Part shown: positions 3,984 to 54,794 of the stretch, piece after piece
Position numbering within the stretch: the first letter of the stretch is position 1
Layout: every line of letters starts with the position of its first letter
Origin: a virus
Length of the DNA stretch: 59,013 nucleotides
Virus genome (UHGV): UHGV-0049545
Direction: 5' to 3' (one strand)
The notes under the pieces: model-generated
Database searches by the model: none
Seen by the model: the letters and a program-made list of their open reading frames with translations, nothing else
Told to the model about the DNA's origin: nothing
Program-made: the position numbers and the translations under genes

Positions 3984-3984
3984 C

Positions 3985-4213: not shown

Positions 4214-4486
4214 ATGGGCTACCTGGCGAAGAAACGGACGGCGTACTGGCAGGACAAAAAGACGGGCCAGATCATCAAGACCCGTCAGCCCGAGTCCTAT
4301 ACGCCATGCCGCGAGTGGTTCATCTATTTCCGGGAAGTCCGGCTGCTGCATAACGCGGCCGCCGGGCAGGTCTGCGCAGAGGATGCCGGCACCTGCCTGT
4401 CGTACCTGGACGACCCGTACTGGACGGAAGTCGACCTGGAAACTTTCACCTACTGGGATTTGATTTATCGCAATCCTGACGTATAG
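4214..4486 (+). CDS. hypothetical protein
   Basis: ORF; last gene of operon 1. Confidence 0.45.
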   Translation: MGYLAKKRTAYWQDKKTGQIIKTRQPESYTPCREWFIYFREVRLLHNAAAGQVCAEDAGTCLSYLDDPYWTEVDLETFTYWDLIYRNPDV

Positions 4487-6284: not shown

Positions 6285-6604
6285 GCAGAGTTACCAACGT
6301 CGTAGTTATGTGCGATACCCTTACCGAGCATTACGGGGTATTCCTGCGGTCCGTTGACCGCTGGTTCCGGGAACATACCGGCACCAGTCTTCGTTCCGTA
6401 GGCCACATGGCCGGCGGCGATAAAAACATGGAATGCAGCGTCTCCATTGGTGCTTTCAACCACCTGGACGTGGATGGGTTTTTCAAAGCGCTCCCGGGTT
6501 TTGTCGAAACTAAACGGATGGACGCGGACAGCGGCTTCATCCTCGTAACCGCTACCACCCAGGAGAACGAAATCATCACATGGAGGCATCAAGTTGAGTT
6601 CTGA
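6281..6604 (+). CDS. hypothetical protein
   Basis: ATGA overlap. Confidence 0.45.
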   Translation: MSRVTNVVVMCDTLTEHYGVFLRSVDRWFREHTGTSLRSVGHMAGGDKNMECSVSIGAFNHLDVDGFFKALPGFVETKRMDADSGFILVTATTQENEIITWRHQVEF

Positions 6605-7307
6605 ATACGTTGACAACCTCATCGCGCTGAAAGCCCGGGAAGCGCATGACCTGAAAGAGATAGGCGACCAGTGGCGGACACCGGACTGGCTGTTCTTCGC
6701 GCTGGACAAGCTGTTCGGCCCGCTGGTGCTCGACCTGTTCACCGATGGCCAGAACGCCAAATGCCCGCGCTACTACACCGCCGAGGACAACGCGCTGCGC
6801 CAGGACTGGGCGGGCCGGCTGAAAAGGATACAGGCGGAACTGGAGGCCGAGGCGGAAGTGTACGACGTCGCCGATCACGTCCAGCGGGTATGGGGTTTCG
6901 CTAACCCACCGTACAGCCGTAACCGTGCGGCGGAAGTGCCGCTGACCGGCATGGTCAATATCATGGCCAAGGCGGAAGAGGAACGGAAGAAAGGCGCGGG
7001 TACGGTCTGGGTGATCAAAGCGGCAACCGCTGAAACATGGTGGCCCGATACCATCGCCACGCGCACCATATTCATCAAAGGGCGCATCGGTTTCGAACCG
7101 CCGGTATGGTTCAAAGCGAAGAAGGGCGCCGCTGGCGCAACGTCCGCGGGCTTCGGCGCCGCGATAGTCATCTTCGACCCGGAAGACGAAGAAAAACATG
7201 CCCCGGAGTACATCTCCCGGGAAGCGCTCATGGATATCGGGCTTCCATGGACCACGATGATGCAGGACGTCCGCGAGAAGTGGATCGCCCAGTGGGACGA
7301 GGTGTGA
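6594..7307 (+). CDS. phage-type DNA N6-adenine methyltransferase (Dam-like), TTG start behind GGAGG
   Basis: WRTPDWLFFALDKLFGPLVLDLFTD...CPRYYTAEDNAL and NPPYS match the phage N6A-methyltransferase family signature. Confidence 0.75.
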   Translation: MSSEYVDNLIALKAREAHDLKEIGDQWRTPDWLFFALDKLFGPLVLDLFTDGQNAKCPRYYTAEDNALRQDWAGRLKRIQAELEAEAEVYDVADHVQRVWGFANPPYSRNRAAEVPLTGMVNIMAKAEEERKKGAGTVWVIKAATAETWWPDTIATRTIFIKGRIGFEPPVWFKAKKGAAGATSAGFGAAIVIFDPEDEEKHAPEYISREALMDIGLPWTTMMQDVREKWIAQWDEV

Positions 7308-7308
7308 G

Positions 7309-7572
7309 ATGAAAGAAGTTCGTGTTCATAAACGTGAGGTCAAAACCATGAAATTAACCAAAACAGTAACCCGTAACGGCAAGATCACCGAAGTGAAAAC
7401 GTTCGACGTGGAAGTCCGCCGGGATGACCACGGCGTCAAACTATGGTGCGGCGATGACTGGTATCTGGACCAGAACAAAGTCGGGAAGACGATCAACCCA
7501 GACCCTTTCACCGAGGTCGTCTGGTCAGTCGGCGAAGAGGAAGGAAAGAATGCCAAAGCCAAACGTGTATAA
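7309..7572 (+). CDS. hypothetical protein
   Basis: Coupled via GAGGTGTGAgATG. Confidence 0.45.
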   Translation: MKEVRVHKREVKTMKLTKTVTRNGKITEVKTFDVEVRRDDHGVKLWCGDDWYLDQNKVGKTINPDPFTEVVWSVGEEEGKNAKAKRV

Positions 7573-35050: not shown

Positions 35051-35320
35051 TCAGACCTCTTCGTCCGCTGCGCCAGCCTTACCGCCTTTTTTGGTGGTGG
35101 CCTTCGCGTCAGACTTTTCTTCCTGCGCAGGCGCTTTTTCTTTCGCCGCCTGGTCTTCCGCATCGACTTCGATGATCGGACGGTCAAGGGCGCCCGGGTT
35201 CATGCTGTTAATGGCGTCCAGCTCTTTCTGGGTGAAGTTGAAGATTTCACCGATCGCCGGGCGGATACGCTGGCCGTCGCGGAAAACGATGACCGTCTGG
35301 ACTACTTTACGTTGTGGCAT
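35051..35320 (-). CDS. hypothetical head-module protein in the lambda FI position, C-terminus ...AADEEV
   Basis: ORF. Confidence 0.4.
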   Translation of the reverse strand: MPQRKVVQTVIVFRDGQRIRPAIGEIFNFTQKELDAINSMNPGALDRPIIEVDAEDQAAKEKAPAQEEKSDAKATTKKGGKAGAADEEV

Positions 35321-40117: not shown

Positions 40118-42189
40118 GCTAACATTTCGGCCAGTTGCGCAAAACTATAACCTGTATCTGGTTTTTCTGCGATGGCCTCCTGTTTATCTATTGTGACCAC
40201 CAGCGGGTTTTTATCCCACTCGTCCGCCCAGACGGGCGGGTTATCCCAGTCTATTGCTTCCATCGCGAGGACACGCCCGCTGATACACATCCCGATCAGA
40301 TAGTAACTCAAGTCCCACGTTTCATTTCGGGTACCCTGCGGGCATTGCCAGCCTTTTTCGTCGCGATGCTCGGCGCACATCTCGCCATACGCGTAGTCCG
40401 GAAGCCACGTAGGGAAATGATACATGCCTTTTCCGGGAACCGTTACATCCAGTCGGCCGTTAAGCATGTCTTTCACCATATTCGAGTTTATCATCAGCAC
40501 CGGGACGTCGCCGCGCGCGATCGCGTTTTTGTCCTTCCGGTTAGAATCCGGCGTCGCGATATGGGTACGCGGGCTTTTCGGCATCGGGTCGCCTTTGACC
40601 AGAATGAATCGCCCGTTTTTCCCCTCGCGGCGCAGCTTACGATAATACTCGTACGCATTGGCCGTTACGCCTGCTGCACCGCCGGAGTCACAGGCTGTCA
40701 TCTTGACCTGCATCACGCGACTAGGGTCATCGGCCAGCGGATAGGTCTTCATCATGACCTGCTTCTCGATCAAATCCCAGTCCTCCAGGTACGCCGCCGG
40801 GCTTAACTTCTCCCGCTCGCCGTCTATATCGAGACGTTCGGATTTGATGATGTTGAACCGGTCAATCAGGTAAATATCGAACGGGTACCCCGGCGCCACG
40901 CCGAATACGGCCACTTCAAAGCGGTGTTTCTGGACGTCCACCGTCGCCGCCAGGAAACGCACGGCGGGTGGTACTGTTTTTTCCGCCCACGGCTCGGCCC
41001 GCGCTTTCAACATTTCCGGAACACGAACCGACTCGATCGACTTCGGCACATAGGGTTCGCCCATGTCGTTGTTCCAGAATTTTTTCAGTGACTCTTCCGA
41101 CATCGTGCGCTCATAGTCGTCGGACGCATCGAGGTAGTTCAGCACCAGCGTCTGCCATGAGATAAACGCCGCCGCCGTTCCGCGTAGCCAGAAGGACGCG
41201 AATGTCGCCCGAAGCGGCTCGCCGACCAGTTGCCCTTTCTCGTTTACCGTACATCCTTCCGGTACCCACATGCCCCACAAATTCATCTCGTACTTCTCTT
41301 CCGGCGCGATTTCGCAGCCGCAGCATGGGCAGACCATTCGGGCCGTTTCTGCTTTTTCCAGGTTCGTGAGCGTTCGCCCATCTGCGGACTTGGTGTCCCA
41401 CTTCATCAGCTGGAACGTTCCTTCGAAATACTGGTCGCAATGGGGGCATGGCCATTTCCAGCGCCGGCGGTCGCCGCGGTTGTAAAGTCCGACGATGCCG
41501 TCGCACGGCGGCGCTTCATGCGGCGTTTTCTTGATCCAGTTTGGGTCTTTTACCGGGCGGGACGGCGACGATTCTGCCGCGCACATGGCAAACGACCCGA
41601 AGGTCGTTGTACGTTTTGACGCGAGGTCAAAGGCGTTACCATCACCGCCGATGTCATCGTCTATACGGTCATAGTCGGTGATGATAATACGGCCCACTGG
41701 CCTCCCCGCCAGTTCCGTAACCGATGGGTAACTAAGCGTCAGGATGATCCCGGTGGTGTAGTGTTTGTCGAATTTGTTATCGGCATCACGGTTCTTCATC
41801 AGCATGGCGCCCACTTCCGGACTGTGCCGGTGGAGTCGGTCCACGCGTCGCATGGAGAAGTCGCGTGCGGCGGTAGAAGTCGGGCAGAACACCATGATAT
41901 CCATGGGATCCACTTTCACCGAATAGGTAATGCCGTTGAGGATCAGCGCATCCGTTTTCCCGCTCTGCGCCGGGCCGACAAACGCCATTTTGTTGTAGTG
42001 GCGGCTGTTCAGCGTGTTCATCGGCTCGACCATGTATGGTGTGGTCATGTTGAGCCAAGGCCCGACATATGCGCCGGGCTGGTTCACGTAACGGTATTTG
42101 GCGGCCGCCTCGGCGACCGTCATGCGCATTGGCGGCCGCAGCTGGCTGGCGACCGACCGGATGATGTGGTTTAACGATTTAAACTTCAT
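40114..42189 (-). CDS. terminase large subunit (lambda gpA-like)
   Basis: ATG 42189 behind GGAGGAAG; size and order. Confidence 0.75.
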   Translation of the reverse strand: MKFKSLNHIIRSVASQLRPPMRMTVAEAAAKYRYVNQPGAYVGPWLNMTTPYMVEPMNTLNSRHYNKMAFVGPAQSGKTDALILNGITYSVKVDPMDIMVFCPTSTAARDFSMRRVDRLHRHSPEVGAMLMKNRDADNKFDKHYTTGIILTLSYPSVTELAGRPVGRIIITDYDRIDDDIGGDGNAFDLASKRTTTFGSFAMCAAESSPSRPVKDPNWIKKTPHEAPPCDGIVGLYNRGDRRRWKWPCPHCDQYFEGTFQLMKWDTKSADGRTLTNLEKAETARMVCPCCGCEIAPEEKYEMNLWGMWVPEGCTVNEKGQLVGEPLRATFASFWLRGTAAAFISWQTLVLNYLDASDDYERTMSEESLKKFWNNDMGEPYVPKSIESVRVPEMLKARAEPWAEKTVPPAVRFLAATVDVQKHRFEVAVFGVAPGYPFDIYLIDRFNIIKSERLDIDGEREKLSPAAYLEDWDLIEKQVMMKTYPLADDPSRVMQVKMTACDSGGAAGVTANAYEYYRKLRREGKNGRFILVKGDPMPKSPRTHIATPDSNRKDKNAIARGDVPVLMINSNMVKDMLNGRLDVTVPGKGMYHFPTWLPDYAYGEMCAEHRDEKGWQCPQGTRNETWDLSYYLIGMCISGRVLAMEAIDWDNPPVWADEWDKNPLVVTIDKQEAIAEKPDTGYSFAQLAEMLA

Positions 42190-42748
42190 CGTCTTCTTCC
42201 TCCGCGAACCGTCTTTCCAGGGTATTCGCGAGGTCATCCAGTATTGAATCCACCGATGACTGCACCACGTTGCGCTGCGCTTCGGTAAGCCCTACCTGCC
42301 GCGATAATGTGTCGGGGATCAGCAGCAGACTCATTCGCAGCGTTTTGATTGCTTCGCCGAATACGCTGACCACGTCTTCCGTTGGCCACAGGTTCCCTGC
42401 GCGCAGGTCATACTCCTGCTTCGCGCGCTGGCCGTTCCAGAACTCCTTCGACAGCTCTTTGGGCAGGTCTTTGAAGTTCATGCGGCGCAAATACGTCTCG
42501 ACGTCGTACAGTGGTTTCACCAGGTACGGCGCGACTTCGTGGACCGCGTAAATTGGGTACCCGCCGCGCTCCCCGACGGGTGGGATATCCATGATCTTCG
42601 GTGTGATGTCCCGGCGCTCCATGCGGAACAGCTTCGCCAGTTGCGTTATGTTGCACCCCTGAAAAATCATCGCCTCGGTATCAGCGTCCGGCGCATTCGA
42701 TCGCCGATTGCGGGTCGCCAGCGGGGCGGTCTTAGTCGTCTTCGTCAT
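42179..42748 (-). CDS. terminase small subunit (Nu1-like HTH), C-terminus ...EEEDDEV
   Basis: N-terminal ...CNITQLAKLFRMERRDITP... HTH; position. Confidence 0.5.
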   Translation of the reverse strand: MTKTTKTAPLATRNRRSNAPDADTEAMIFQGCNITQLAKLFRMERRDITPKIMDIPPVGERGGYPIYAVHEVAPYLVKPLYDVETYLRRMNFKDLPKELSKEFWNGQRAKQEYDLRAGNLWPTEDVVSVFGEAIKTLRMSLLLIPDTLSRQVGLTEAQRNVVQSSVDSILDDLANTLERRFAEEEDDEV

Positions 42749-44303
42749 CCCATAGCTCCGTTTTCTTAGCCTTCATGCGCTTAGTTATGCGGCCTTTGAT
42801 GCGGTTTAGCAAATCAAAAAAAGCATCTTGCACATCACCCTTAGTATTTAGCGCTTCGATGACGGTGCCGTCGACAGTGTCGATCAGCTCCTTGGTTTTC
42901 GGATGGCGGATCATCGCTTTCATCTGGTAAACCGTTACCGGGTGCTTCTGGCCCTGACGCGCCAGGCGGCCATTGAATTGCAGAAACCGTTCAAGCGACC
43001 ACGGGTTATCGACGTATACGATGATGTGACCACCGTGCTGCAGGTTAAGTCCATGGCCGGCGGACTGTGGGTGCGCCGCCAGTAGCTTTATCTTTCCGGC
43101 ATTCCACTTCTTAATCGCCTTGCCGTCATCATCCATGACGACCAGACCCCTTTTCCCGAACCGCTCCTGCAGGCGGGCCAGGGTCGGCTTAAAGTGATAG
43201 GCCAGGAAGACGTTTTCCCCCTCCAGGGTGCTGTCAAGTAACTCTTCCAGCGCATCGAATTTCAGGTCGTGAATTCGATAAGCATCTTTCTGCTTCACCA
43301 CTTTGTCGTCACTGGTGATCCCGACGATTTTGGTGTCGTAGATAAATCCGGACGCCAGCTGCAGCAACTTGTCCTGCAGGGCCGCCGCCTGCTCGGCTTC
43401 AATCGTCACCGGGTCATCCAGATATTCGTCGAATTCGTCGGGCATGATTTCGACAAGGGATTCTTCTTCCATCTGGCGGTACAGGTCCGCGGAATGCGGG
43501 TCTAGTTCTACCGGTAGCGGTACCAGCGTTGGCTTTTCGACGTCAAGATAATCTTCCGCCTTCATCACCATGACGATGTCGGAGATTTTGCGGATGATTT
43601 CTTCCTCGGCACCATTGCGTAACTTGAACTTGAAATTGTACTTGTTTTGGATGAAATAGTTTTCCTGATACCCGGTGATCGTGGTGCCAAAGCGCTCGCC
43701 TTCGTCCAGCAGGTACGTCTGCGCGAAAATGCCCATGTACCCTTCGGCGGCAGGGGTGGCAGTCAGCTCCACCAGGTAGTTTATGTACGGCCGGCAGCGG
43801 CGTAGCAGCTTGAACCGTTGCGAGGTATGCGACTTGAACATGCTGGACTCGTCCAGGATAACCATGTCGTATGGCCATTTCTTTTTGAACAGTGTACACA
43901 GCCACGCGAGGTTATCCACGCTCACCGTGTAGAAATGGCAGTCCTCGCGTGCGGCGCGCTCGCGTTGTGCTGCATCGCCATCGATGACCGATATCTTCCA
44001 GAAACAGAGGTGCCCCCATTCCTCGAATTCGCTTGGCCAGCCCACTTTCGCAACGCGCTTTGGCCCGACGATCAGCACTTTGTTAACTTTCCCGTCGACG
44101 ATACGGTCCAGTGCGGCAGTGGCGGCCATCACGGTCTTGCCCAGTCCAAGGTCGACGAACAGGCCACAGAACGGCGTGTCTTTGATGAAGTCGACGCCGT
44201 CGTCCTGATAGCCGTGCATGTCCGACCGCTGGTGAATCACGTTGCGCTGGCAATACGCGATTGCCTTACTCAAAGGCGATAAGGTAGTTCTTAAAGTCTT
44301 CAA
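42732..44303 (-). CDS. SNF2/DEAD-family helicase, C-terminus ...WDDEDD
   Basis: Walker A DLGLGKT, DESS box. Confidence 0.75.
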   Translation of the reverse strand: MKTLRTTLSPLSKAIAYCQRNVIHQRSDMHGYQDDGVDFIKDTPFCGLFVDLGLGKTVMAATAALDRIVDGKVNKVLIVGPKRVAKVGWPSEFEEWGHLCFWKISVIDGDAAQRERAAREDCHFYTVSVDNLAWLCTLFKKKWPYDMVILDESSMFKSHTSQRFKLLRRCRPYINYLVELTATPAAEGYMGIFAQTYLLDEGERFGTTITGYQENYFIQNKYNFKFKLRNGAEEEIIRKISDIVMVMKAEDYLDVEKPTLVPLPVELDPHSADLYRQMEEESLVEIMPDEFDEYLDDPVTIEAEQAAALQDKLLQLASGFIYDTKIVGITSDDKVVKQKDAYRIHDLKFDALEELLDSTLEGENVFLAYHFKPTLARLQERFGKRGLVVMDDDGKAIKKWNAGKIKLLAAHPQSAGHGLNLQHGGHIIVYVDNPWSLERFLQFNGRLARQGQKHPVTVYQMKAMIRHPKTKELIDTVDGTVIEALNTKGDVQDAFFDLLNRIKGRITKRMKAKKTELWDDEDD

Positions 44304-44637
44304 AATTGTCCACCCATGTCACGTTAGCCCCTTTGGCTTTCATCTGCCGATGGCGGTTGCGCTGCTGCAGCGTTGGTTCTTCGCCAGGGCGCTTGAATTC
44401 CACAAAAAGCACAACGCCGTTCCGGATAAAAACGCGATCCGGAACGGCCTTTTTCCCGGGTGCCGTGAACTTCGACACCCACCAGCCGCGGCCCTGCGCA
44501 TACTCGCAGCAGCGGCATTCGACCTTCGATTCCCTGACGACAGGGGTTGTCCATTCTGGCATTAGCGGTTTCTCCGTGTAGGGAACACCGACCATCTTGG
44601 CCTTCGGTTTAACGCCTGTTCCGTCATGGTGGACCAT
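44266..44637 (-). CDS. VRR-NUC domain nuclease
   Basis: ...PDRVFIRNGVVLFVEFKRPGEEPTLQQ... . Confidence 0.65.
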   Translation of the reverse strand: MVHHDGTGVKPKAKMVGVPYTEKPLMPEWTTPVVRESKVECRCCEYAQGRGWWVSKFTAPGKKAVPDRVFIRNGVVLFVEFKRPGEEPTLQQRNRHRQMKAKGANVTWVDNFEDFKNYLIAFE

Positions 44638-45092
44638 TTAACGTTCCCCGGTTCGTAATTCCCGTCATTGTCTATTCGGTCAATCGTAAGCCCGGGTTTC
44701 CATGTGCTGCCCACGTCGTCCTTAAAGGCCGAATAGCTTTCCCGCCAGCGGTCACAAACGGTTATCCCTCTTGCACCGTAGTAACAGTAATCCGGGTCGG
44801 TTTCACGGTGACATCGCGCCTTCATGGAACGCCAAACGTCATATAGCTTTTCCCCGCACCCACCGTGTTTCGTTTTCATGGTCCGCATACGATCTCGGGA
44901 AGATTCACGTCGCAAACACCCGCAGCTTTTCTTTCGGCCAGCTTTCAGCTCACGGGTACCAGCTAGTGTTTTTTGACCACATTCGCATTTACAGACCCAT
45001 TTTCTCGGGTTAAGCCGGGATGACGGGATGTCGGATAGGCAAATAACCGTAAGTCGGTTGAACGTTTTACCTGATAAGTCGTTGTTTTTCAT
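44562..45092 (-). CDS. HNH-family endonuclease with zinc ribbon (free-standing, between PolA and VRR-NUC)
   Basis: GKTFNRLTVI...WVCKCECG...CGC and ...IDRIDNDGNYEPGNVKW. Confidence 0.55.
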   Translation of the reverse strand: MKNNDLSGKTFNRLTVICLSDIPSSRLNPRKWVCKCECGQKTLAGTRELKAGRKKSCGCLRRESSRDRMRTMKTKHGGCGEKLYDVWRSMKARCHRETDPDYCYYGARGITVCDRWRESYSAFKDDVGSTWKPGLTIDRIDNDGNYEPGNVKWSTMTEQALNRRPRWSVFPTRRNR

Positions 45093-45097
45093 GGGGA

Positions 45098-47140
45098 TTA
45101 GTCCTTCCTATAAAAGTATCCGGACCATCCGGCGGCGCCAAGCGGTAATCCGGGCGCCCATGGCAGTTCAGCCGCCATGCAGCTGATCAGGTCAGCAAGG
45201 GTTAACGGGCTATCTTCCGGGACTTCGGTGACGATCTCATCGTGGATATGCATGACGATCTTAAAGCCCATCCGGTGTGCCTTCTTCATCCCTTCGGCGA
45301 GGACGTCACGCGCCAGGGCCTGGACGATGTTTTCCACAAGTTTCCCACCGTGGCTGAACACCTTGCCCCAGGACGAACCATTAGCTTTTTCGATTTTTCC
45401 TTCGTACTGGAAGTTCAGTGTGGTGTACTTCTCGCCTTTACGTTTACCGCTCTGAACCGTCATCTGGCGTTCTACGATGCGCGGGCGGAAGTAGTACATC
45501 TTGCGGCCTGACGGTAGCTTAATAGTCAGGAATGGCTTTGTGTATTCGATGGTCAGACACTTCCACTTCACCGGGCGATGCGTACGGATAACCTGGAAGA
45601 CACAGTTTTCCAGCTGTTTCCATGCCTCCACGATTTCCGGGCAAAGTTCACGAAACGCTTTCACCGAATCCGCGGCTTCTTTCTGGGTCATGTGAACGCC
45701 CATGTTCTCCGCGTATCCCCACAGCCCGGTTTTCTTCCCATCGTCGCCAAGGTGGCCGCCACCAAGGCGATAACCTGCACCGAGTGTGGCGGGTTTCGCT
45801 TTAGTACGATGAGGGATTGTCTCCTCGTATGGCAATCCGAGCCAGTGGGCCGCAAACGATCGATACAGGTCATGTTTTATAGCCAGCGTATCCATGAACC
45901 ATTTGCAGTCTGTCAGCCACCCGATCACGACCGATTCGATCGAAGCAAGGTCGGCAACGATAAACTTGTGACCGGGAGAGGGGATAAACGCAGACCGGAT
46001 GCAGCCGACAAGGGCATCCATCGGTTCCCCGGCGAACAGCGCCAGGTTATCCAGTTCCCTGTTCGCGATGAACCGGTTCGCGATAGTGAGGTCTTCAACG
46101 GCTTCCAGGAATTTTGGAGTACGTGGCAGGTTTTGCGTCTGGATCTTTCGTCCCGCCCAGCGGTTCGTCCGGCTGGCACCGGCGAACTGCAGAGAGTAGC
46201 GGAATCTACCATCGTGGCCCGCCGCATTTTTCATCGTCCGGTATTTGGCAACCGAGTTTTTTGCGCTATTAAGCCGGAGGCTAAGAATGGGAATGGCTTC
46301 GCTATCAATGCCGTTCTCTTCCTGCTCCCTGATAACCTTCTCGACCGTGTCTTTTCTAAGGTCGTCAAACGGATAGCCGCGTTCGCGTAACCACGGGAGC
46401 AATTGTGAGACGGAATTAGGGTTTTGAAGGCCGGTCAGGTCTTTCATCTCTTCGATGATTTGCGGTTTGCGCATGTCCGCCAGGTCCAGTGCGGCCTGCG
46501 CGAATTCAGTATCGATCATTACGCCGCGGTCATTGATAAGCTGGTCAAGCGCGTATAAGTCCCACTCCTGCGGCAGTATGGGGTACTTGATGAGCCGATT
46601 TTTAATCAGCATTTCAGTTTCGACGTCGCGAACGTTATACCGACAGAACCCCCACCACTCTTCGGGATCCGTTAGCTCGTTACGCCACTCAAAAGGGTTA
46701 TTTTTGGTGACGCGTTGAGGCATGCAGAACATCCGTATCAACCGCTTGCCATCCGGGTCTTTCAGCTGGTCTTCTTTCAGCCCAATCTGCTTACCTACCT
46801 GCAGAAGATCGCCAGCAAAGCCCAGCATGTAGGCCAGAACCATCGTGCATCGCCAGGATTTATACGGGGTTTTCAGGCCAAGAACTCGGCGGGTCATCAC
46901 CCTTTCGAATTGCGCGTTGAAAGCCCACTTCTCCACGTGGGGGTCAAGCAGCGCTTCTTTCAGCTCTGCCGGCATCTTCGCGCCACGGGATAGGTCGGCA
47001 TGCTGTACCTTGCCGTTGTTAACAGAATATGCTGCCATCAGGATTTTAGCATCCGGGCAGCGTGAATAACGGTCCAGGCCTTGCTTCGTCAAATCGACGC
47101 GCGCCCGGCTTTCGTAGTCAAGGTTAATAATATCGGCCAT
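45098..47140 (-). CDS. DNA polymerase I family (PolA) with 3'-5' exonuclease motifs
   Basis: Exo I LDYES; palm motifs. Confidence 0.85.
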   Translation of the reverse strand: MADIINLDYESRARVDLTKQGLDRYSRCPDAKILMAAYSVNNGKVQHADLSRGAKMPAELKEALLDPHVEKWAFNAQFERVMTRRVLGLKTPYKSWRCTMVLAYMLGFAGDLLQVGKQIGLKEDQLKDPDGKRLIRMFCMPQRVTKNNPFEWRNELTDPEEWWGFCRYNVRDVETEMLIKNRLIKYPILPQEWDLYALDQLINDRGVMIDTEFAQAALDLADMRKPQIIEEMKDLTGLQNPNSVSQLLPWLRERGYPFDDLRKDTVEKVIREQEENGIDSEAIPILSLRLNSAKNSVAKYRTMKNAAGHDGRFRYSLQFAGASRTNRWAGRKIQTQNLPRTPKFLEAVEDLTIANRFIANRELDNLALFAGEPMDALVGCIRSAFIPSPGHKFIVADLASIESVVIGWLTDCKWFMDTLAIKHDLYRSFAAHWLGLPYEETIPHRTKAKPATLGAGYRLGGGHLGDDGKKTGLWGYAENMGVHMTQKEAADSVKAFRELCPEIVEAWKQLENCVFQVIRTHRPVKWKCLTIEYTKPFLTIKLPSGRKMYYFRPRIVERQMTVQSGKRKGEKYTTLNFQYEGKIEKANGSSWGKVFSHGGKLVENIVQALARDVLAEGMKKAHRMGFKIVMHIHDEIVTEVPEDSPLTLADLISCMAAELPWAPGLPLGAAGWSGYFYRKD

Positions 47141-47206
47141 GGTGTCCTCTTATGAGAAAGCCCGCACTAGGCGGGCTTCCGGTTTCAATGCCCGACGGGC
47201 TGGGGG

Positions 47207-47827
47207 TTAAACGTCGTCGTCTTCATCGCCGGCGTCGTCGTCTTCCCAGTCTTCGTCGTCATCCCACGCGTCGGAGGTATCAACACGACCTTCGCCGAAC
47301 GGTTCGTCATCTTTACGCTTCAAAACGGAGATCAGGTTAGCGTTTACGCGTTTGCCGTATTTGTTATCCTGGGTCCAGGGTCGGATAACCATGGACACCC
47401 AGCAACCGCCGTAAATCTCTTCTTCAATCTCAGCCTTAGTCGTTAATTCCTCGCGCTCGATGTTAAAGACTTCGGGCTTTTTGCTTTCGCGCGCAGAGAG
47501 AACCCACATGCCAGCGCATTCCGGTTTGTCCGGGAAATCAACATCGCCGTCTTTCAGGAACAACATGGCCGGCGCCACTTTGAGCGGACCAGCTTTGTGG
47601 TTCTTTTTGGCGACTTCGATCTGCTCTTTCAGCAGCTGGTAAATCTCTTTGTGCGTTTTCTTCGGCAAAAGCCCGACGATACCGTATTTCGGCTCGCCTT
47701 CGCCGTCTCCGCCGTATGGGGCGCCCAGGTGCGGATATGAAGCGCGTACGTTGGAAACTTTGATGTGACCGCTCTTATACAGAACGCCGTTTTTAACTTT
47801 CTTCGCAGGAACTAATTTTTCAGCCAT
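47207..47827 (-). CDS. DUF2815-family single-stranded DNA-binding protein, C-terminus ...DDAGDEDDDV
   Basis: OB-fold family that co-occurs with DUF2800 and PolA. Confidence 0.6.
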   Translation of the reverse strand: MAEKLVPAKKVKNGVLYKSGHIKVSNVRASYPHLGAPYGGDGEGEPKYGIVGLLPKKTHKEIYQLLKEQIEVAKKNHKAGPLKVAPAMLFLKDGDVDFPDKPECAGMWVLSARESKKPEVFNIEREELTTKAEIEEEIYGGCWVSMVIRPWTQDNKYGKRVNANLISVLKRKDDEPFGEGRVDTSDAWDDDEDWEDDDAGDEDDDV

Positions 47828-47841
47828 TTCTCTACTCCGGG

Positions 47842-47877
47842 TTACGAATTTACGGGTTTACCATCTTACCGATTTAC
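47842..47877 (-). repeat. Five TTAC tetranucleotides at exactly 8-bp phase (47842, 47850, 47858, 47866, 47874); in the mRNA, GUAA(A)xxxx x5 immediately 5' of the SD/ATG of the SSB-like gene
   Basis: Read directly. Confidence 0.8.
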
Positions 47878-49223
47878 ACTTCATCGTCGTCATCTTCGTC
47901 GTCATAGGCGCCGGAATATTTCTGATCCAGTGGTGGCCGCTTATCAGTCAGCGGTACCAGGGTCGGCTTACCTTCCGGCTTCCATACGACGCTTTCGATG
48001 ACCATTGGCGCGCCGGCGCGTGACAGTCCAAGTTTATCCCGAAGGACTTCTTCCATCTGCGCCGGCGAGCGCAATTCCGTTTTCATATAGTCTTTTTCGT
48101 CAAGGCCAAGGAAATCATACAGCTCCCTGGCCTTTTCGACATTGGTATGTGCACGGTTAGAGCGTGATTCCACCAGCTTATGCCCGGGAACCGGCTTACC
48201 GTCTTTCGCGGCCCGCTCCAGCTCCAGGTCCAGGCGGGCGAACCAGTTTTCAATCACTTTGCGGTAAGGCAGTATCTTGGCCATCTCGGCAACGGACAGA
48301 TCGCCGAACTTCGCCTTCCGCATTTTGTATTCGTCCGCCAGGGCGGCGCGTAACTGCGACATCTCATAGTCTCCGAATTCAGTGTCCAGGAATTCGAGGT
48401 CGGCACCGACGGCGCATTCCATCATGTACGCCACAGCTGCGCAATTATGCGCGGCCCGGCACCACCGGCACCCTTTCAGCGTCGCCTTGCGTTTGGCTTT
48501 GAGTGACCAGGCGGCCGCTGCACGCTCGCGGATGAACTCGGCGAAGTCAAGCAATTCGTCGACCGTCACTTCCCAAACGTCGAAATGCTCAAGCCTCGGT
48601 TGTGCGATCCGGATGATGACCCGGTCAAACTCGTACTCATCGCTGAATGCGCGGTACGCCCCGTATGCATAGAGCAACGCCTGGGGGTTGCCTTCCGCGA
48701 AAACCTGGACGCCGGTTCCGTATTTCAGGTCGGTAACAATCAGCACTCGATCGCGAATGATGATGTTATCCGCGGTACCGCCCTGCGGGAGAAACGGCAC
48801 TACTTCGGCATCCGGGTCTTCCTCCAGCTCGTCAGCGTTGGCCGGCGGCATCAGGTCTGTGAACCAGACCCGGATTTCCGTCAGCATCATGCCTTCTTCG
48901 AACCGACACCAGTCAACATAATCCTGAACATAGTCGATCATGGAGCGGGTGACGACAATCTCATGCCGAACGCCTTTTTCCTCGACGACCTGCGTAGTTC
49001 CGATAAGATGCGTCGGTCGGATGTCCGTTTTCAGCCACTGCTCGGCGATGCCATGGGCGACGGTTCCTTCCGCCGCTTCATAGCTGCACTCGTCCTCTTC
49101 GAAAAGGTTGGCCAGCAGACTTCCGCCGCAGGCCGTCCACATCGCAGAGGCAGACGGCGCGAAAATAGAATGTCCGCCGCCGGCAAACTCCTGCATAACA
49201 CGAACCAGGAAAGACTTACTCAT
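47874..49223 (-). CDS. PD-(D/E)XK nuclease, DUF2800/Cas4-like with C-terminal Cys cluster, C-terminus ...DDEDDDDEV
   Basis: ...CRWCRAAHNCAAV... four-Cys cluster. Confidence 0.65.
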   Translation of the reverse strand: MSKSFLVRVMQEFAGGGHSIFAPSASAMWTACGGSLLANLFEEDECSYEAAEGTVAHGIAEQWLKTDIRPTHLIGTTQVVEEKGVRHEIVVTRSMIDYVQDYVDWCRFEEGMMLTEIRVWFTDLMPPANADELEEDPDAEVVPFLPQGGTADNIIIRDRVLIVTDLKYGTGVQVFAEGNPQALLYAYGAYRAFSDEYEFDRVIIRIAQPRLEHFDVWEVTVDELLDFAEFIRERAAAAWSLKAKRKATLKGCRWCRAAHNCAAVAYMMECAVGADLEFLDTEFGDYEMSQLRAALADEYKMRKAKFGDLSVAEMAKILPYRKVIENWFARLDLELERAAKDGKPVPGHKLVESRSNRAHTNVEKARELYDFLGLDEKDYMKTELRSPAQMEEVLRDKLGLSRAGAPMVIESVVWKPEGKPTLVPLTDKRPPLDQKYSGAYDDEDDDDEV

Positions 49224-49566
49224 CCGGGTAGCCTTTTATGGCACGTAAAATTCGTTCAACGCCTACTTCATCGATTGTCTTTTTAACCGCCATTGCGCCG
49301 GCCCTTCCATAGTTGTTCCGTTTCAGGTTATAGCGGGATTTCGCTAACAGGTCGAAACGGAAATCGGTGAAACGGTATCCGGATCCAACGTGGGTGACGA
49401 CGAAACGGAATTCCCCATTAATCCGCCGGCCGTTCTGGCCACGCGCGGGGGAAGTTACTCTGAATAAGGGGTTACGGTCGCCGATTTCAAAGCGGAACTC
49501 TGCCCACATAGGGACTTCCTCCTCGCCTTTAATTGTCATCGCTATCGCCGTTCCAAACTTATTCAC
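49216..49566 (-). CDS. hypothetical protein
   Basis: ORF; first gene of the leftward replication block. Confidence 0.45.
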   Translation of the reverse strand: MNKFGTAIAMTIKGEEEVPMWAEFRFEIGDRNPLFRVTSPARGQNGRRINGEFRFVVTHVGSGYRFTDFRFDLLAKSRYNLKRNNYGRAGAMAVKKTIDEVGVERILRAIKGYPDE

Positions 49567-49580
49567 AATAACCTCTCTGC

Positions 49581-49603
49581 TAAAACGGCCCCCGCAGGGG
49601 CCG
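49581..49603 (-). terminator. Leftward terminator-like hairpin (CGGCCCC-N4-GGGGCCG + UUUUA) after the 49621 gene
   Basis: 7-bp GC stem; short U-run. Confidence 0.4.
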
Positions 49604-49620
49604 AGTTACACGATCGAAGA

Positions 49621-50013
49621 TTAAACGTCGTCTTCTTCGGAGTTGCCTTCGTCCTCTTCCGGTTCGGCCAGTTTGGCTTCACACAGGTCAAAGATCGCGT
49701 CGAAGTGTTCTTCTTTCGCTTCGGCGATTTTGGCCAGGCCGAATTTCGCGGTGATCTTTTTGGCTTCCGGGGCGCCAAAGCGGTCTTTCACCGCTACAAC
49801 CGCAGCGACTACTTCGTCTTTGGTGTGTTTCGGCTTGTCTGCCGCAGCAGTGGATTTGCCTTTGGCGGTGGTTTTACCTTTGGCGGTGGTCTTACCGGCG
49901 CCAGCGTCTTCACCTGCTGCAGCGGAAGAAGCGCCGCCATTAGCCAGCAGCTGTTCCAGCAGGGAGTTGGTTTTTTGTTGTTCGGCCAGCAGCTGTTCAA
50001 AAATACCTGACAT
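49621..50013 (-). CDS. hypothetical low-complexity K/A/T-rich protein with tandem KTTAKG repeats, C-terminus ...EEDDV
   Basis: ORF. Confidence 0.45.
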   Translation of the reverse strand: MSGIFEQLLAEQQKTNSLLEQLLANGGASSAAAGEDAGAGKTTAKGKTTAKGKSTAAADKPKHTKDEVVAAVVAVKDRFGAPEAKKITAKFGLAKIAEAKEEHFDAIFDLCEAKLAEPEEDEGNSEEDDV

Positions 50014-50047
50014 AGTTAAATCCTCGTTCGGTTAATTTGGGTTTGTC

Positions 50048-50094
50048 GTGTTGACGGTTTGGAGTATGGCCATTGCTGCATCGCGTGTCAACAC
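50048..50094. promoter_or_regulatory. Inverted repeat GTGTTGAC...GTCAACAC (31-bp spacer) in the divergent 49621/50243 control region; candidate operator. A TTGACAC... -35 reads on the minus strand at 50094-50088.
   Basis: Read directly. Confidence 0.45.
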
Positions 50095-50242
50095 TTTCGC
50101 AAAAATATTTTCGGTGCATATTGGTTTTTTCGGGGATCATTGTGGAATGGCTCAGGGTCGCCGGGAATCGCCCCCTTTACTTTGTAGCAGCGCGAGACTA
50201 ATATCCGTTTTACTTACACGCACACACACGCGAGGACCATCT

Positions 50243-50524
50243 ATGAAATTTCCACCGTGGGCTATTAAAGACCACTCCCTGAGACCGCGTTACCTCGCTG
50301 GTATCGCTGCCCTGGAGGTAGACCCGGACGGCAACCTTACCAAACTGGCGAAGGCGGCTGGCGTAAATTACGACACTATGATCTGGAATATCCGCAACAC
50401 CGTTTCCGGGCAGATGGCCGTCAAAATTTGTGAGGCCGCTAAAACTTCTGGCATCCGACCACATTGGTTCACTAACCCGGACTGGATAAAAATCGACCCG
50501 GATACAGGGGAAATTCTTGAATGA
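50243..50524 (+). CDS. putative HTH DNA-binding regulator (Cro/YdaS-like, 93 aa)
   Basis: ...DGNLTKLAKAAGVNYDTMIWNIRN... HTH; ATG 50243 behind GAGGACC. Confidence 0.45.
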   Translation: MKFPPWAIKDHSLRPRYLAGIAALEVDPDGNLTKLAKAAGVNYDTMIWNIRNTVSGQMAVKICEAAKTSGIRPHWFTNPDWIKIDPDTGEILE

Positions 50525-53109
50525 ACTACTGGAACGAATACGGAATAGCGCTGTGGGAAAACGGCTTCACCGTCGTTCCCATCATTCCGCCTGACTCGCC
50601 CAGGCCAAAAGCAGGAAAACGGCCTGCGTTCGAAGACTGGCAGAAAATCGAGAACACCCGTGGCCAGATTAACGGTTTCGCGAAGAAATACGCGTCATCC
50701 GGCATCGGCATCCTGACCAAGCACACCCCGGCGGTAGACATTGACGTCTACGACAAAGACGGGGTTAAGCACATGATGGCCATTGTCGAAAAGAAAATCG
50801 GCGCCGGCCCGGTTCGTGTTGGCCGTCAACCTAAAAAACTGGTGCTTTGCCATACCGACGAGCCGTTCAAAAAGGTCAAGTCCGCCACCTGGGAAGATGA
50901 CTTCGGCCAGCGCCATGCCGTCGAAATCCTCGGTGATGGCCAGCAGTTCGTCGCCTTCGGTATACACCCGGATACGCGCAAGGAATACACATGGATCACC
51001 GATGATACCCCTGTGAACTGCGCGGCCGCCATGGACCTGCCTGAAATCACGCTGGAGATCGCCCGCGATATCGCCGATGCGTTCGACGCCTATGCCGAAA
51101 AACAGGGATGGATGAAAGTCGCACGGGCCATTAACGGACGGGCGGCGGAAGGCGAAGCGGACGATGACGACTGGGCGGCAATGGCCACCGTCACCAAGTG
51201 GGACGGCACCTACGACGAGCTGCGCGATATCGTCATGAAATACCCTGACCCGGAGAACTATGAAAACTGGATCCGGGTAATGGCAGCGCTGCAGGTGTCA
51301 TGCCGCGATCAGGATGAAGCGAAAGAGATCGCCCGCGACTGGTCCATGCAGGCGGATAACTATGACGAGTCGGAATTCGAGTACAAGTGGGAAAAAGGCT
51401 TCACCCATGATGCCCAGACGCTGGTGACAATCGGCACCATCATCAAAACGGTCCACGAAATCGAAGAGAAGGAAGCCCGGGAACAGGTTTCCGAGTTCAC
51501 CGAGGCATTCAACGAAGTCACCACCATGGCGGACTGGAAAGCCTGGGCAGACGACTTCCGTAAGCTGCGGGTTTTCGGCATTGAGCGCCAGCCGACTATT
51601 GACGCGGCCAAGAAAGCCTACAAACGCCTGAACGAAAGCGCGCTGACCAACAAAGCCGTTAAAGAGTACCTCAGTTTCGACTTTTCCCGTGCGGATACAC
51701 CTAACTGGCTGAAAGAATACGTTTTTGCACAGGCCCAGGACGCCTTTGTCAGCCGGAAAACCGGGGTTTTACTGTCAAAAGGCGCCTTCGATTCGTCCCA
51801 TGGGCGTGATATCGGCGACGTGGAAGGCGGTTTATCACCGAATAAGTTCGCCACGGACGTCGTAAAAATCCCGATTATTCACGACGTTATGTACTATCCG
51901 GAGATGCATGGCGGCATGCAGGAGACGAAATGGACGCAAAAAGAAGGTCTTTTGGGGCCGGAATTCTTCTATGACGACTCCGGATTGCTACGTTTGAACA
52001 CGTTTTCGCCTGAAAGCATCCCAAAAGCAGCGGAAAAACTGTCAAAACTGGACAAAAAAGCCATTTCTATCGTCAAAGACCTCTTTATCGTGCTGTTTCC
52101 TGACACGAAAGAGCGGACGTACGTCATGGACTGGCTGGCGCACATCGTCCAGCACCCGACAAAGCGCATCAACTATTCGCTGCTCATCCGCGGGGCGCAC
52201 GGTTCGGGTAAATCCACGATCGGGGTGCTTATGCGCGAAATGCTGGGGGCGCAGAACATCGGGTACGTCTCTAACTCCGTGATGAATGGCCGTTTCACCG
52301 ACTGGGCGGAAGGCCACATCCTGAAAATCGTGGAAGAGGTGTATGACAAAGGCGATCGGTACAGCGCCGTCGATAAGCAGAAGGAATTTATCTCGAACGA
52401 CCGCTTCCAGGTGGAAGGGAAAGGCGTCAAGCCGCGTGACGTGGTGAATACCAGCTCGAAATTAATGTTCACCAACCACATCAACGCGCTGCCGCTGGAC
52501 GAGAACCAGCGCCGCTACCTGGTCGTCTCCACGCAGGCAGAAAACCATCTCGATATGGACCGCGTTTACGGGTCGGCAAAGGAACGCGAGAAGTTCTTCT
52601 CTAACGTCTATAGGGCTATCGAAAATCACGGTCCTGCCATTAAGAAATGGTTCCTCGAATGGGAGATCTCCCCGGACTTCAACCATAAGGGCCATGCCCC
52701 GCAGGACACCCGTGCTTTCCAGGTAATGATGGAGGCTTCCAGCGACGGCGTCGGCGAGATGTTAGCCACCATGATCAGGGAGAACGAGACACTGGGCGTG
52801 TGCAAAGACATTATTTTCTCGCCCGCTTTAAAGGACGCTTTTATGGAGATGCCGGACGTCGAAATGCCGAAGACGAACCGACTAAAAAACCTCCTCCTGG
52901 ACCTCGGTTTTGAGCCGGGTGGACTGCTAAAAATCGATGGCGTTACCGGCCGGTGCTTCACCAGAAGAAACGTGAGAGCGGCAAAAGGTGAAGACGGAAA
53001 GCTAAACACTGAATGGGCGCGGAAAACGCTAAACGCCCACAATGAACTTGTTGAATCGAAAATCGGGAAACACAAAACCGCGTTCGATGATGAAGACGAT
53101 GAGGTTTGA
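50521..53109 (+). CDS. primase-helicase: N-terminal bifunctional prim-pol domain plus D5-like P-loop helicase (GAHGSGKST), C-terminus ...DDEDDEV
   Basis: Domain motifs read directly; 862 aa. Confidence 0.8.
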   Translation: MNYWNEYGIALWENGFTVVPIIPPDSPRPKAGKRPAFEDWQKIENTRGQINGFAKKYASSGIGILTKHTPAVDIDVYDKDGVKHMMAIVEKKIGAGPVRVGRQPKKLVLCHTDEPFKKVKSATWEDDFGQRHAVEILGDGQQFVAFGIHPDTRKEYTWITDDTPVNCAAAMDLPEITLEIARDIADAFDAYAEKQGWMKVARAINGRAAEGEADDDDWAAMATVTKWDGTYDELRDIVMKYPDPENYENWIRVMAALQVSCRDQDEAKEIARDWSMQADNYDESEFEYKWEKGFTHDAQTLVTIGTIIKTVHEIEEKEAREQVSEFTEAFNEVTTMADWKAWADDFRKLRVFGIERQPTIDAAKKAYKRLNESALTNKAVKEYLSFDFSRADTPNWLKEYVFAQAQDAFVSRKTGVLLSKGAFDSSHGRDIGDVEGGLSPNKFATDVVKIPIIHDVMYYPEMHGGMQETKWTQKEGLLGPEFFYDDSGLLRLNTFSPESIPKAAEKLSKLDKKAISIVKDLFIVLFPDTKERTYVMDWLAHIVQHPTKRINYSLLIRGAHGSGKSTIGVLMREMLGAQNIGYVSNSVMNGRFTDWAEGHILKIVEEVYDKGDRYSAVDKQKEFISNDRFQVEGKGVKPRDVVNTSSKLMFTNHINALPLDENQRRYLVVSTQAENHLDMDRVYGSAKEREKFFSNVYRAIENHGPAIKKWFLEWEISPDFNHKGHAPQDTRAFQVMMEASSDGVGEMLATMIRENETLGVCKDIIFSPALKDAFMEMPDVEMPKTNRLKNLLLDLGFEPGGLLKIDGVTGRCFTRRNVRAAKGEDGKLNTEWARKTLNAHNELVESKIGKHKTAFDDEDDEV

Positions 53110-53121
53110 AACGGTCGAAAT

Positions 53122-53146
53122 AAAAAGGGGGCGAAAGCCCCTTTTT
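53122..53146. terminator. Bidirectional terminator AAAAAGGGGGCgaaaGCCCCTTTTT between the primase gene and the 53146 gene
   Basis: Hairpin flanked by an A-run and a T-run. Confidence 0.7.
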
Positions 53147-53673
53147 CATTTTGTGATGCTGAATGGGTACCGGGCGTTCAGGTGGTTTACGGTCAGTGTT
53201 ACGCTAGGGTAAAAAAGTTGAAGGGCGGGGAGCGTAGTATCCACCTTTGCAACACTTTTACGGGATAGCGTCCCTTGTGGGAGGAACGTTTTAGCTTCCA
53301 CAGCCCGCAAGCTCATGCCGTGTGCCTTCGCGGAAATGACGATTTCCATGAAAATGCGATATCTAAGCGCCCGTATGTACGCTTCTACCTCTTCCTGGTC
53401 CAGGTGGTATTGTGGCATAACGCGGCTCGATGCTACTGTGCGGGCGTTGAAGCCATTCCGCATTGAAACTTTTATTTGAAATAGCAGACCTTCCGATACC
53501 GCAAGTCTTATGACTGATTCAAGGCCATAGCGGTCCATGTCCACCCCCCGTTTAATCCTATCCAGGTCGCGTTTGCGTCTGGTCTTGGGCTGGCTATCGG
53601 CGGCCGTAAATTTCAAATTTTTTAGCGCGGAAATTATCTCATTTCTGACGGCTAAAACCACTGGATGTCTCAT
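53146..53673 (-). CDS. hypothetical protein next to the repeat-rich noncoding region (start uncertain: 53673 ATG or 53760)
   Basis: ORF. Confidence 0.4.
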   Translation of the reverse strand: MRHPVVLAVRNEIISALKNLKFTAADSQPKTRRKRDLDRIKRGVDMDRYGLESVIRLAVSEGLLFQIKVSMRNGFNARTVASSRVMPQYHLDQEEVEAYIRALRYRIFMEIVISAKAHGMSLRAVEAKTFLPQGTLSRKSVAKVDTTLPALQLFYPSVTLTVNHLNARYPFSITK

Positions 53674-54052: not shown

Positions 54053-54794
54053 TGACAGCTGCATCAGCACTGGTCCGGCTGCACCAGAGCACCGCCCCAA
54101 AATGTAATGCAATCAATCGGTTGCGGGGCTAAAACGGCCTTTAGGGCACCACCCCTGGAACGCAAAATCACGTCTGCCCTACGGGCAAAACTCGAAAAAA
54201 CGCCTGTAAATCATGAATTTCCGAAGTGGGGCTATGGGGATTTCGCCGCATTTTCTTCCACCGCGGCTCTGCGCACCCCCGGCACACCGGACCCCCTCGG
54301 AAGTACCTTTTTGAATTCGATCCGGATTCCTTCTCCAGCGCCACGGAGACGGGCGCAGCCTCGATCATGGTACACCCCTACAGCATACCCCCACGATAGC
54401 CGCGCCTGACCCCCATAGCGGCGGCATAATCGGCATACCTCCACCCGGTCACACGGTCACATAGCCACCCCGACACAAAAACACCCCCGATCACTACGAT
54501 CAGCGGCCTCATTGAACCTGCATCATGTGCATTGATACGGTCACACCCGGACAGCGCCTATAACACCCGCCCCGTGTGCAATACAGCAAGACCACAGCAC
54601 GCTATAACACCCCCGCCACTATGCCGGGGTGCACCTATAACATGTGCAAATAAACGGGCTTTAAAACGCTGTGTAGGACGGCGTAAAGGGGGGAGTCTTT
54701 GCAACTGGTCGGGTGCAACTTCTTTTCATCCACTGGCCACGCCAGCGGCCTTAACGATGGTCCGCGATCCTTTGGTTCGGGTTTATCGCAGACG

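Follow-up and report, generated by a model that had tools for sequence, protein, structure and literature searches.

Acidic C-terminal tails on DNA-transaction proteins of a Klebsiella siphophage change their last residue in concert between lineages and may address a common receptor

The viral genome UHGV-0049545 was analysed as one stretch of 59,013 bp (the window), which represents nearly all of the genome of a Klebsiella siphophage (genus Yonseivirus, family Casjensviridae) in circularly permuted form and has 92–96% nucleotide identity to phages SAKp02, Soft and KPN N98/N137. Gene functions were assigned against Pfam, PHROGs and PDB. Positions 47207–53109 contain the core of the replication module, consisting of genes for a gp2.5-type (T7-type) protein (SSB) that binds single-stranded DNA (ssDNA), a DUF2800 exonuclease, two small proteins, a regulator and a primase-helicase of the Prim-Pol/D5 type. 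The subject of this study is an acidic tail ending in (D/E)V that is found at the C-terminus of the SSB and of many other proteins of this phage. Within the module core it is carried by the 206-amino-acid (aa) SSB (47207–47827, minus strand), where it spans approximately residues 187–206 and ends ...DWEDDDAGDEDDDV (DEDDDV); by the 449-aa DUF2800 exonuclease of the PD-(D/E)XK type (47874–49223, minus strand), whose Pfam domain stops at residue 430 and whose tail reads ...GAYDDEDDDDEV (DDEDDDDEV); by a 130-aa phrog_7721 protein without a Pfam family (49621–50013, minus strand; labelled 'putative RecT' in Soft), which ends ...EEDEGNSEEDDV (SEEDDV); and by the 862-aa primase-helicase (50521–53109, plus strand; Prim-Pol, PriCT_2 and D5-like DUF5906), which ends ...TAFDDEDDEV. 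A terminator follows the primase gene: directly 3' of its stop codon, at 53110–53150, a GC-rich hairpin precedes a T-run (GGGGGCGAAAGCCCCTTTTT).

Further carriers are distributed over the rest of the window. Strict tails are present on the terminase small subunit TerS (DUF1441; 42179–42748, minus strand, 189 aa; ...RRFAEEEDDEV), on an 89-aa DUF7443 protein with a Lys/Gly-rich linker (35051–35320, minus strand; ...GKAGAADEEV), on an RdgC-like recombination-associated protein (2892–3983, plus strand; ...DAQLEDDDEV) whose gene probably starts near 2913, on a 255-aa phrog_6886 protein without a Pfam family (4641–5408, plus strand; ...LIREEDIEV) and on a 125-aa DUF7609 protein (758–1135, plus strand; ...GAGTPEDDEV) with no gene close downstream. 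The DUF7443 gene lies directly after the major capsid gene, which is the position of lambda FI in its head operon. Two members are weaker: the Dam-family N6-adenine DNA methyltransferase (6594–7307, plus strand) has the short tail ...AQWDEV, and a 90-aa phrog_7587 protein (4214–4486, plus strand), which ends ...IYRNPDV, is only a weak possible member. The SNF2-family helicase (42732–44303, minus strand) carries a variant, ...ELWDDEDD, in which an aromatic residue and an acidic run are not followed by a terminal aliphatic residue. This brings the total to 12 carriers, nine strict, two weaker (WDEV and NPDV) and one variant (WDDEDD). The family A DNA polymerase PolA (45098–47140, minus strand, 680 aa) has no tail and ends in the invariant sequence AAGWxGYFYRKD. 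As to the methyltransferase, 6594–7307 matched Pfam Dam (PF05869, E=2.5e-33) and a PHROG DNA methyltransferase family, and its RefSeq relatives are named 'phosphoadenosine phosphosulfate reductase', a name that is probably a misannotation of these orthologues.

All eleven C-termini quoted in the first-pass annotation of this sequence were reproduced by direct translation. The tails sit outside Pfam domain boundaries, and most have an aromatic residue 4–12 positions from the end (e.g. AFDDEDDEV, GAYDDEDDDDEV, AQWDEV and RRFAEEEDDEV). Within the gene set of the window, no virion structural or lysis protein had a tail, the DUF7443 protein being the sole carrier in the head module. For a statistical assessment we used 95 open reading frames (ORFs) built from the strand blocks of the genome, 11 of which end in (D/E)V, and defined a strict tail as a terminal V, a penultimate D or E and at least three D/E among the five residues before the V. 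Nine strict tails were seen versus 0.06 expected from within-protein shuffling (maximum of 3 in 20,000 trials), and the frequency of the same 6-mer inside the proteins predicted 0.045 at the termini. Chance or amino acid composition was therefore rejected as the source of the tails.

We then compared the C-termini of orthologues in complete genomes at increasing distance. Phages Chi and Enc34, whose primases are about 60% identical to that of the window and whose orthologues are 50–80% identical, retained all of the tails, which end in V and occasionally in I. In Serratia phage Smarc1 (37% identical) the acidic tails of the same orthologues end in L, as do those of a C-methylase (cytosine) and several small proteins. 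In Aeromonas phage BUCT551, 11 of 74 coding sequences (CDS) end in an acidic run plus I, among them the primase, DUF2800, SSB, SNF2, TerS, the protein in the FI position, an N6-A methylase and an exoribonuclease. Six orthologues in BcepNazgul (31% identical) end in GL with weaker acidity, and Proteus phage P2-71 has a partial, mixed set of tails. The first-pass annotation had set this comparison as a test of its proposal, and the outcome favoured the proposal, with more force than had been anticipated: tails were conserved at about 60% protein identity, and farther out the terminal V changed in concert to L, I or GL. Such a concerted change excludes codon or Shine-Dalgarno (SD) drift and fits a shared receptor that co-evolves with the tails.

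The individual endings document this change. The DUF2800 exonuclease ends in V (Chi and Enc34), SMDDDL (Smarc1), I (BUCT551) and DDGL (Nazgul), and the SSB of Smarc1 ends in DDDEDGL. For the primase the endings are PFDDEDEV (Chi and Enc34), AFEDVDDEL (Smarc1), DYDDEEI (BUCT551) and YAGCGL (Nazgul); for TerS they are DDDEV (Chi and Enc34), DKDEEL (Smarc1), DDEEI (BUCT551) and DDDPAAGL (Nazgul); and for the SNF2 helicase WDDEE and WDDEED (Chi, Enc34), FDDDDL (Smarc1), EEDDEI (BUCT551) and TAAGL (Nazgul). Orthologues of the 49621–50013 protein end in EEDDV (Chi), EEEEV (Enc34), EGDGL (Smarc1), DDDDL (P2-71) and NDDDI (BUCT551), and those of the DUF7443 protein, or the protein in the FI position, in AEDEV (Chi), ADDEV (Enc34), KKEEDL (Smarc1), DADDDL (P2-71), NDDEI (BUCT551) and ASASGL (Nazgul). 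RdgC ends in DDDEV (Chi), EDDEV (Enc34), PEDDEL (Smarc1) and VEDDM (P2-71), and Dam in WDEI (Chi and Enc34) and SFDDL (P2-71), with EEEEI on the N6-A methyltransferase of BUCT551. The 758–1135 protein ends in ADDDEV (Chi) and DDDDEV (Enc34), the 4214–4486 protein in NPDI in both phages, and the 4641–5408 protein in EEDVEI (Soft), EGEVEI (Chi) and EEDVEI (Enc34). Between the last protein and its 97% identical counterpart in Soft (L001, 9518–10312), EEDIEV is replaced by EEDVEI, such that V and I are swapped at positions −3 and 0; V and I thus appear to be interchangeable at the terminus within the clade of the window and Soft.

To extend the comparison, 80 loci around SSB homologues were taken from IMG/VR and searched with hidden Markov models (HMMs) for 11 families. 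Terminal residues agreed within a genome and differed between genomes, with all-I, all-L, GL, F/PF/AF, LV, LA/PLA and VI genomes represented. For cluster tests the loci were dereplicated to 27 clusters at 55% SSB identity. The terminal residues of SSB and DUF2800 were identical in 12 of 25 clusters compared to 4.0 expected (p=5e-5), those of SSB and TerS agreed in 11 of 19 (p=7e-4), and those of primase and SSB in 9 of 21 compared to 4.3 expected (p=0.012). Agreement was also found for primase and TerS (p=8e-4) and for DUF2800 and TerS (p=9.5e-4), and the controls PolA and TerL gave none in the same test. When only pairs of strictly acidic tails within a genome were considered (37 dereplicated loci), the last residue was shared in 73% of 115 pairs versus 25% after shuffling, the maximum in 5000 shuffles being 43%. 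In the most distant loci only SSB and DUF2800 still matched in their endings, e.g. PLA/PLA and DLV/ALV. In loci L030, L041, L050, L057–L064 and L067 the PolA position after the SSB gene is occupied by an ORF of 580–690 aa that was undetected by the PolA HMM and whose best Pfam matches are to family B polymerase, weak and below the curated cut-off. These loci keep DUF2800, SSB, VRR-NUC, SNF2 and primase, and their tails persist and covary.

Two other forms of the tail were seen in this collection. The form without a terminal aliphatic residue, an aromatic residue plus 1–4 acidic residues (WDDEDD, WDD, WDDE, EW), was present on SNF2 helicase, DUF2800 or primase in the window, L029, L035, L038, L040 and L011 (P2-71), and genomes with this second type keep normal aliphatic-ended tails on SSB and TerS. 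It may reflect two binding modes or two receptor sub-sites. Tails resembling the tip of bacterial SSB were found on the SSBs of L088 (DDDIPF) and L059–L063 (DDDMAF) and on primases (DDFPF or DSMPF in L061–L063, also DDELAF); the sequences of the L088 and L059–L063 tails suggest that they target host SSB-interaction pockets.

Independent drift in ten unrelated proteins would not leave a last residue that is uniform within a genome and different between genomes, and the use of different codons excludes gene conversion. The simplest account is selection by one common receptor with a pocket that would differ from lineage to lineage. We therefore consider it probable that the tails constitute a shared docking motif acting in trans on a receptor that co-evolves with them. 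Many receptors would freeze the motif, yet the residue has changed, which argues for few receptors; and since closely related Enterobacterales phages differ in the residue, a receptor that evolves with the phage is more likely than one that evolves with the host. The first-pass annotation had proposed that the SSB-tail principle is extended to replication, recombination and packaging proteins through one docking site, and the orthologue comparison supports that proposal at the level of sequence. Taken as a whole, the explanation that we favour, with somewhat less assurance than the docking motif itself, is a shared C-terminal docking motif recognized by one phage-encoded receptor, for which the groove of the SSB is the leading candidate.

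Evidence on the SSB bears on the identity of that receptor. The SSB of the window matched PF10991 (E=7e-30) and PDB entries 5ODJ/5ODK, which are Enc34 ORF6 (E=3e-103), and also the DUF2815 structures 4KLK and 4JG2; together with the core of an AlphaFold2 (AF2) model, these matches identify it as a T7-type (gp2.5-like) OB-fold protein. All 118 full-length SSB homologues in the databases have a stretch of acidic residues that is closed by L (66), I (39), V (10) or M (4), and those ending in V were found only among relatives of ≥71% identity. In the crystal of the Enc34 SSB (77% identical), a neighbouring molecule accommodates the C-terminal tail in its concave seven-stranded sheet, with 842 Å2 buried, and similar tail contacts occur in two other DUF2815 crystals and in that of T7 gp2.5 (PMC5686142). 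Because the tail of the Enc34 homologue docks on its neighbour in crystals, the SSB is the leading candidate for the receptor, although we put this forward only tentatively. The polymerase is the second candidate and a rather unlikely one; the persistence of the tails where PolA has been replaced argues against it as the only receptor. The remaining probability falls to another phage protein or a host protein. A 116-aa protein encoded at 49216–49566 was considered as the hub and rejected, since Smarc1, P2-71 and Nazgul all lack a match to it. With regard to C-terminal peptide recognition by a carboxylate clamp (EEVD-TPR) or a class III PDZ domain, no TPR or PDZ domain was found with Pfam and PHROGs in the tail-bearing proteins and a few neighbours, the only proteins scanned.

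In the mechanism that we propose, the tails would be a short linear docking motif at the extreme C-terminus. The motif comprises an aromatic residue (W/F/Y), three to nine Asp or Glu residues and, at the end, an aliphatic residue whose carboxylate is free. About a tenth of the proteome carries it, and all carriers act on DNA. All tails would compete for one phage-encoded receptor site that combines a basic surface with a small hydrophobic pocket, and the receptor would be a hub that gathers the enzymes of replication, recombination, DNA modification and packaging on the same DNA intermediates. The likeliest site would be the concave β-sheet, or ssDNA groove, of the SSB. There, SSB tails could connect neighbouring SSB molecules, the tail of an enzyme could tether that enzyme to SSB, and displacement of a tail by ssDNA could provide a hand-off or SSB-eviction step. 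The DUF2800 exonuclease and SSB may form the ancestral core, like an exonuclease that loads its annealing protein; the finding that only these two share endings in the most distant loci fits an ancestral exonuclease–annealase coupling. One can go further and imagine that one hub, probably SSB, unites replication, recombination, methylation and packaging in a DNA factory by means of a proteome-wide C-terminal address tag whose last residue (V, I, L, GL or F) is a lineage barcode, an extension that we regard as speculative. If it were true, the barcode would have to change in about 10 genes and the receptor together, and, as a compatibility barrier, it would limit both the modular exchange of genes and cross-talk between co-infecting relatives.

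Several observations weigh against a common phage-encoded receptor, or against SSB in that role. TerS, the helicase and DUF2800 of P2-71 have no tail, indicating that it is dispensable for individual proteins, and the mixture of V and I inside the Chi/Enc34 clade indicates that the receptor is not absolutely specific. Although loci were dereplicated at 55% SSB identity, shared ancestry is not completely corrected for in the shuffling tests. No receptor emerged from a divergence-stratified covariation scan of SSB, PolA, DUF2800, VRR-NUC, SNF2, primase, TerL and TerS: only the terminal column of SSB itself stood out, a trivial self-hit, with columns at about 147–179 of DUF2800 as mild outliers, and a scan of SSB columns alone for co-change with the terminal residue was confounded by divergence. 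In an AF2 model of the SSB monomer built from a 90-sequence alignment, the core had a predicted local distance difference test (pLDDT) score above 90 and the tail, at 54–65, was not docked confidently in cis. The last 11 residues of the Enc34 SSB, including the terminal motif, are disordered in the crystal (PMC5686142). Finally, the rationale for binding of SSB by TerS, a head-module protein and a methylase is not obvious.

One alternative is that the tails are a by-product at the nucleotide level, in which purine-rich GAR/GAG-GTG gene ends provide the SD sequence or start context of the next gene. The first-pass annotation had pointed to SD overlaps at the ends of 2892–3983 and 6594–7307, and these were confirmed: GAGGTGTGAnATG occurs at 3975–3987 and 7299–7311, where the last codons GAGGTG also serve as the SD of the next gene. 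With GAGGTCTGATATG at the end of 35051–35320, GAGGTG/GAGGTC-TGA-n-ATG junctions are present at three genes, each with a GGAG/GAGG motif 4–12 nucleotides ahead of the following start. In addition, collinearity with the Soft annotation places the start codon of TerL within the tail codons of TerS (GAT GAA) and makes the start of TerS overlap the tail codons of the SNF2 helicase, and the 4641–5408 stop codon overlaps the next start (GTATGA). Translational coupling, which had been suggested as a partial cause, is thus a side-effect at six genes and fails for five tails that are uncoupled. For the SSB, DUF2800, primase, 49621–50013 and 758–1135 genes, which have the five most acidic tails and include the longest ones, a GGAG/GAGG motif 4–12 nucleotides (nt) upstream of a start was absent, and gaps of 46–66 nt or terminators lie downstream in place of an immediately adjacent gene. 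Moreover, the terminal V is encoded by GTT, GTG, GTA and GTC and the acidic residues by mixed codons, orthologues differ synonymously in their tail codons while the amino acids are kept, the switches from V to L and from V to I alter the first codon base in all proteins together, and most of the genome's tightly coupled genes have no tail. From the different codons and the uncoupled tails we conclude that the tails are selected at the protein level. Together with the switches between orthologues, the uncoupled tails and mixed codons rule out an SD or codon artefact as the sole cause, and the by-product explanation as such is exceedingly improbable.

Selection on the protein could also operate through a different partner or through none. 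Were the common receptor the DNA polymerase, as in T7, the tails would hold replisome and recombination proteins near it. The tails of T7 gp2.5 and gp4, which share a ...DF ending, bind basic patches on gp5–thioredoxin, and that of gp2.5 also binds the helicase (PMC12339929, PMC4124056). In the window the PolA gene adjoins that of SSB, and PolA itself is never tailed. Its taillessness is uninformative, however, since the C-terminus is invariant across the family. Indeed, the C-terminus of a family A polymerase is probably not free to bear a tail. No PolA column was outstanding in the covariation scan, tails covary in the loci where PolA has given way to a non-homologous, weakly PolB-like protein, and there is no rationale for binding of the polymerase by TerS, the FI-position head protein or Dam; we accordingly rate this explanation as unlikely, if still worth serious consideration. 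A host protein might instead be hijacked as the one hub, whether RNA polymerase, a chaperone, a component of the replisome or a protein that partners the C-terminus of the host SSB, and the metagenomic tails that are near or identical to the bacterial SSB tip (L088, L059–L063) speak for this. Yet conserved host pockets would not drive a switch from V in phages of Klebsiella, Salmonella and Hafnia to L in Serratia and a mixture in Proteus, and tails ending in V, I or L lack the IPF of the host SSB tip, making a host receptor improbable. Tails without any common receptor might act in cis as acidic DNA mimics on the DNA-binding surface of their own protein, or serve as solubility or anti-aggregation tags. 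This would suit the observations that every carrier is a DNA-binding or DNA-processing protein, that the Enc34 SSB without its tail gains double-stranded DNA (dsDNA) binding and binds dsDNA as well as ssDNA (PMC5686142) and, according to work cited in the same paper, that the tail of T7 gp2.5 competes with ssDNA for its own groove. It gives no account of a common last residue that changes together in 9–12 unrelated proteins; cis and trans roles are compatible, and a cis role as the whole explanation has little probability in our estimation. C-terminal sequences determine proteolysis in bacteria, and the tails might therefore be a degron or stability signal through which a protease of the host or the phage times the turnover of DNA-metabolism proteins. 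The motif does lie at the extreme protein end, apparently with its free carboxylate. Known bacterial C-terminal degrons are non-polar (ssrA-like LAA), whereas these tails combine a strongly acidic sequence with one aliphatic residue at the end; tails occur on early, middle and late proteins alike; and an interaction role of the SSB-family tail is established in T7. A degron is thus very improbable.

The docking motif that we favour resembles several known systems, and differs from each. As in T7, the tails on a T7-type OB-fold SSB and on the primase-helicase of the same phage are acidic and disordered and have the same hydrophobic residue at their end. T7 has tails on only 2 of 52 CDS (gp2.5, ...EDGDF; gp4, ...NDTDF), whereas among the 9–12 carriers here are also the DUF2800 exonuclease, the SNF2 helicase, TerS, the DUF7443 head-module protein, RdgC, Dam and proteins of unknown function. 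Here an aliphatic residue (V, I or L) stands at the terminus and in T7 an aromatic one, lineage switching is a feature of the tails described here, and the role of the polymerase as tail receptor is a T7 feature for which the polymerase here is only a candidate. With the tip of bacterial SSB (DDDIPF) the tails have in common an acidic run and a hydrophobic end with a free carboxylate, which there form a universal docking peptide that makes one hub for genome-maintenance enzymes. The polarity is reversed: bacterial SSB alone bears the peptide and each partner has its pocket, while at least 10 non-SSB proteins of the window bear the peptide themselves. That the partners also carry the peptide argues for few receptors. 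The bacterial tip is nearly invariant, and here the last residue varies by lineage. The consensus D-D-D-[IL]-P-F was not found in the window, where tails end in (D/E)V without Pro-Phe, and occurred only in the distant L088 and L061–L063.

The closest analogue of SSB as a hub is RPA70N (DBD-F), whose OB-fold basic cleft binds acidic motifs of many partners, including C-terminal ones of PrimPol (PMC8210275); a Prim-Pol-family primase as a partner would be common to both. RPA70N is a dedicated interaction OB domain whose ligands are internal amphipathic helices and not extreme C-termini, and it is not homologous to the phage system, in which binding is proposed. A hub for C-terminal peptides also exists in phage T4, where the gp45 sliding clamp binds C-terminal motifs of gp43, gp33 and gp55 and links replication to late transcription. 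Both systems would place C-terminal peptides on one hub; the T4 motif is hydrophobic rather than acidic and is carried by fewer proteins. The T4 hub is a clamp, which to our knowledge is not encoded by the phage of the window. In the full-text literature on Casjensviridae, Chi-like phages and DUF2815/DUF2800 phages we found a description of the Enc34 SSB tail only (PMC5686142) and none of shared tails. About 10 tailed proteins per genome, an aliphatic end and concerted switching between lineages would accordingly be the new elements of the sequence pattern described here.

The replisomes of T7, T4 and E. coli are classically held together by acidic C-terminal tails, which are known for SSB and, in T7, also for the helicase. 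On about 10% of a phage proteome, the device reaches packaging (TerS and the head-module protein), the methylation of DNA and the RdgC-type control of recombination. As a natural covariation experiment, the joint change of the last residue across lineages predicts a single receptor pocket and points to residues to mutate, and the wiring of the DNA-transaction network of the phage is testable with short peptides. A sequence rule of this kind could place phage proteins, such as DUF7609, DUF7443, phrog_6886 and phrog_7721, in DNA-metabolism networks. It also suggests peptide inhibitors of phage replication and constraints on the engineering of chimeric therapeutic Klebsiella or Salmonella phages. 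The pattern reaches many uncultivated phages with a DUF2800–DUF2815 module.

Additional features of the window were noted. The SSB and PolA genes are separated by a 66-nt spacer (47141–47206) that is in frame with both genes and contains two stop codons, and a terminator is annotated at the matching position in Soft. Between PolA and the VRR-NUC endonuclease lies a 176-aa ORF (44562–45092, minus strand) annotated as an HNH endonuclease in Soft. In Chi and Enc34 the endonuclease gene directly follows PolA with no such ORF between them, and 44562–45092 therefore resembles a mobile HNH insertion specific to Yonseivirus. At 54236–54277 the last 30 nt and the first 30 nt of the linear Soft genome match the window contiguously, with the 12-nt cos overhang GCTCTGCGCACC beginning at 54266. 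As the ends of the Soft genome are contiguous in the window, we conclude that the window spans the junction of a cos-type genome, of which it is a circularly permuted copy.

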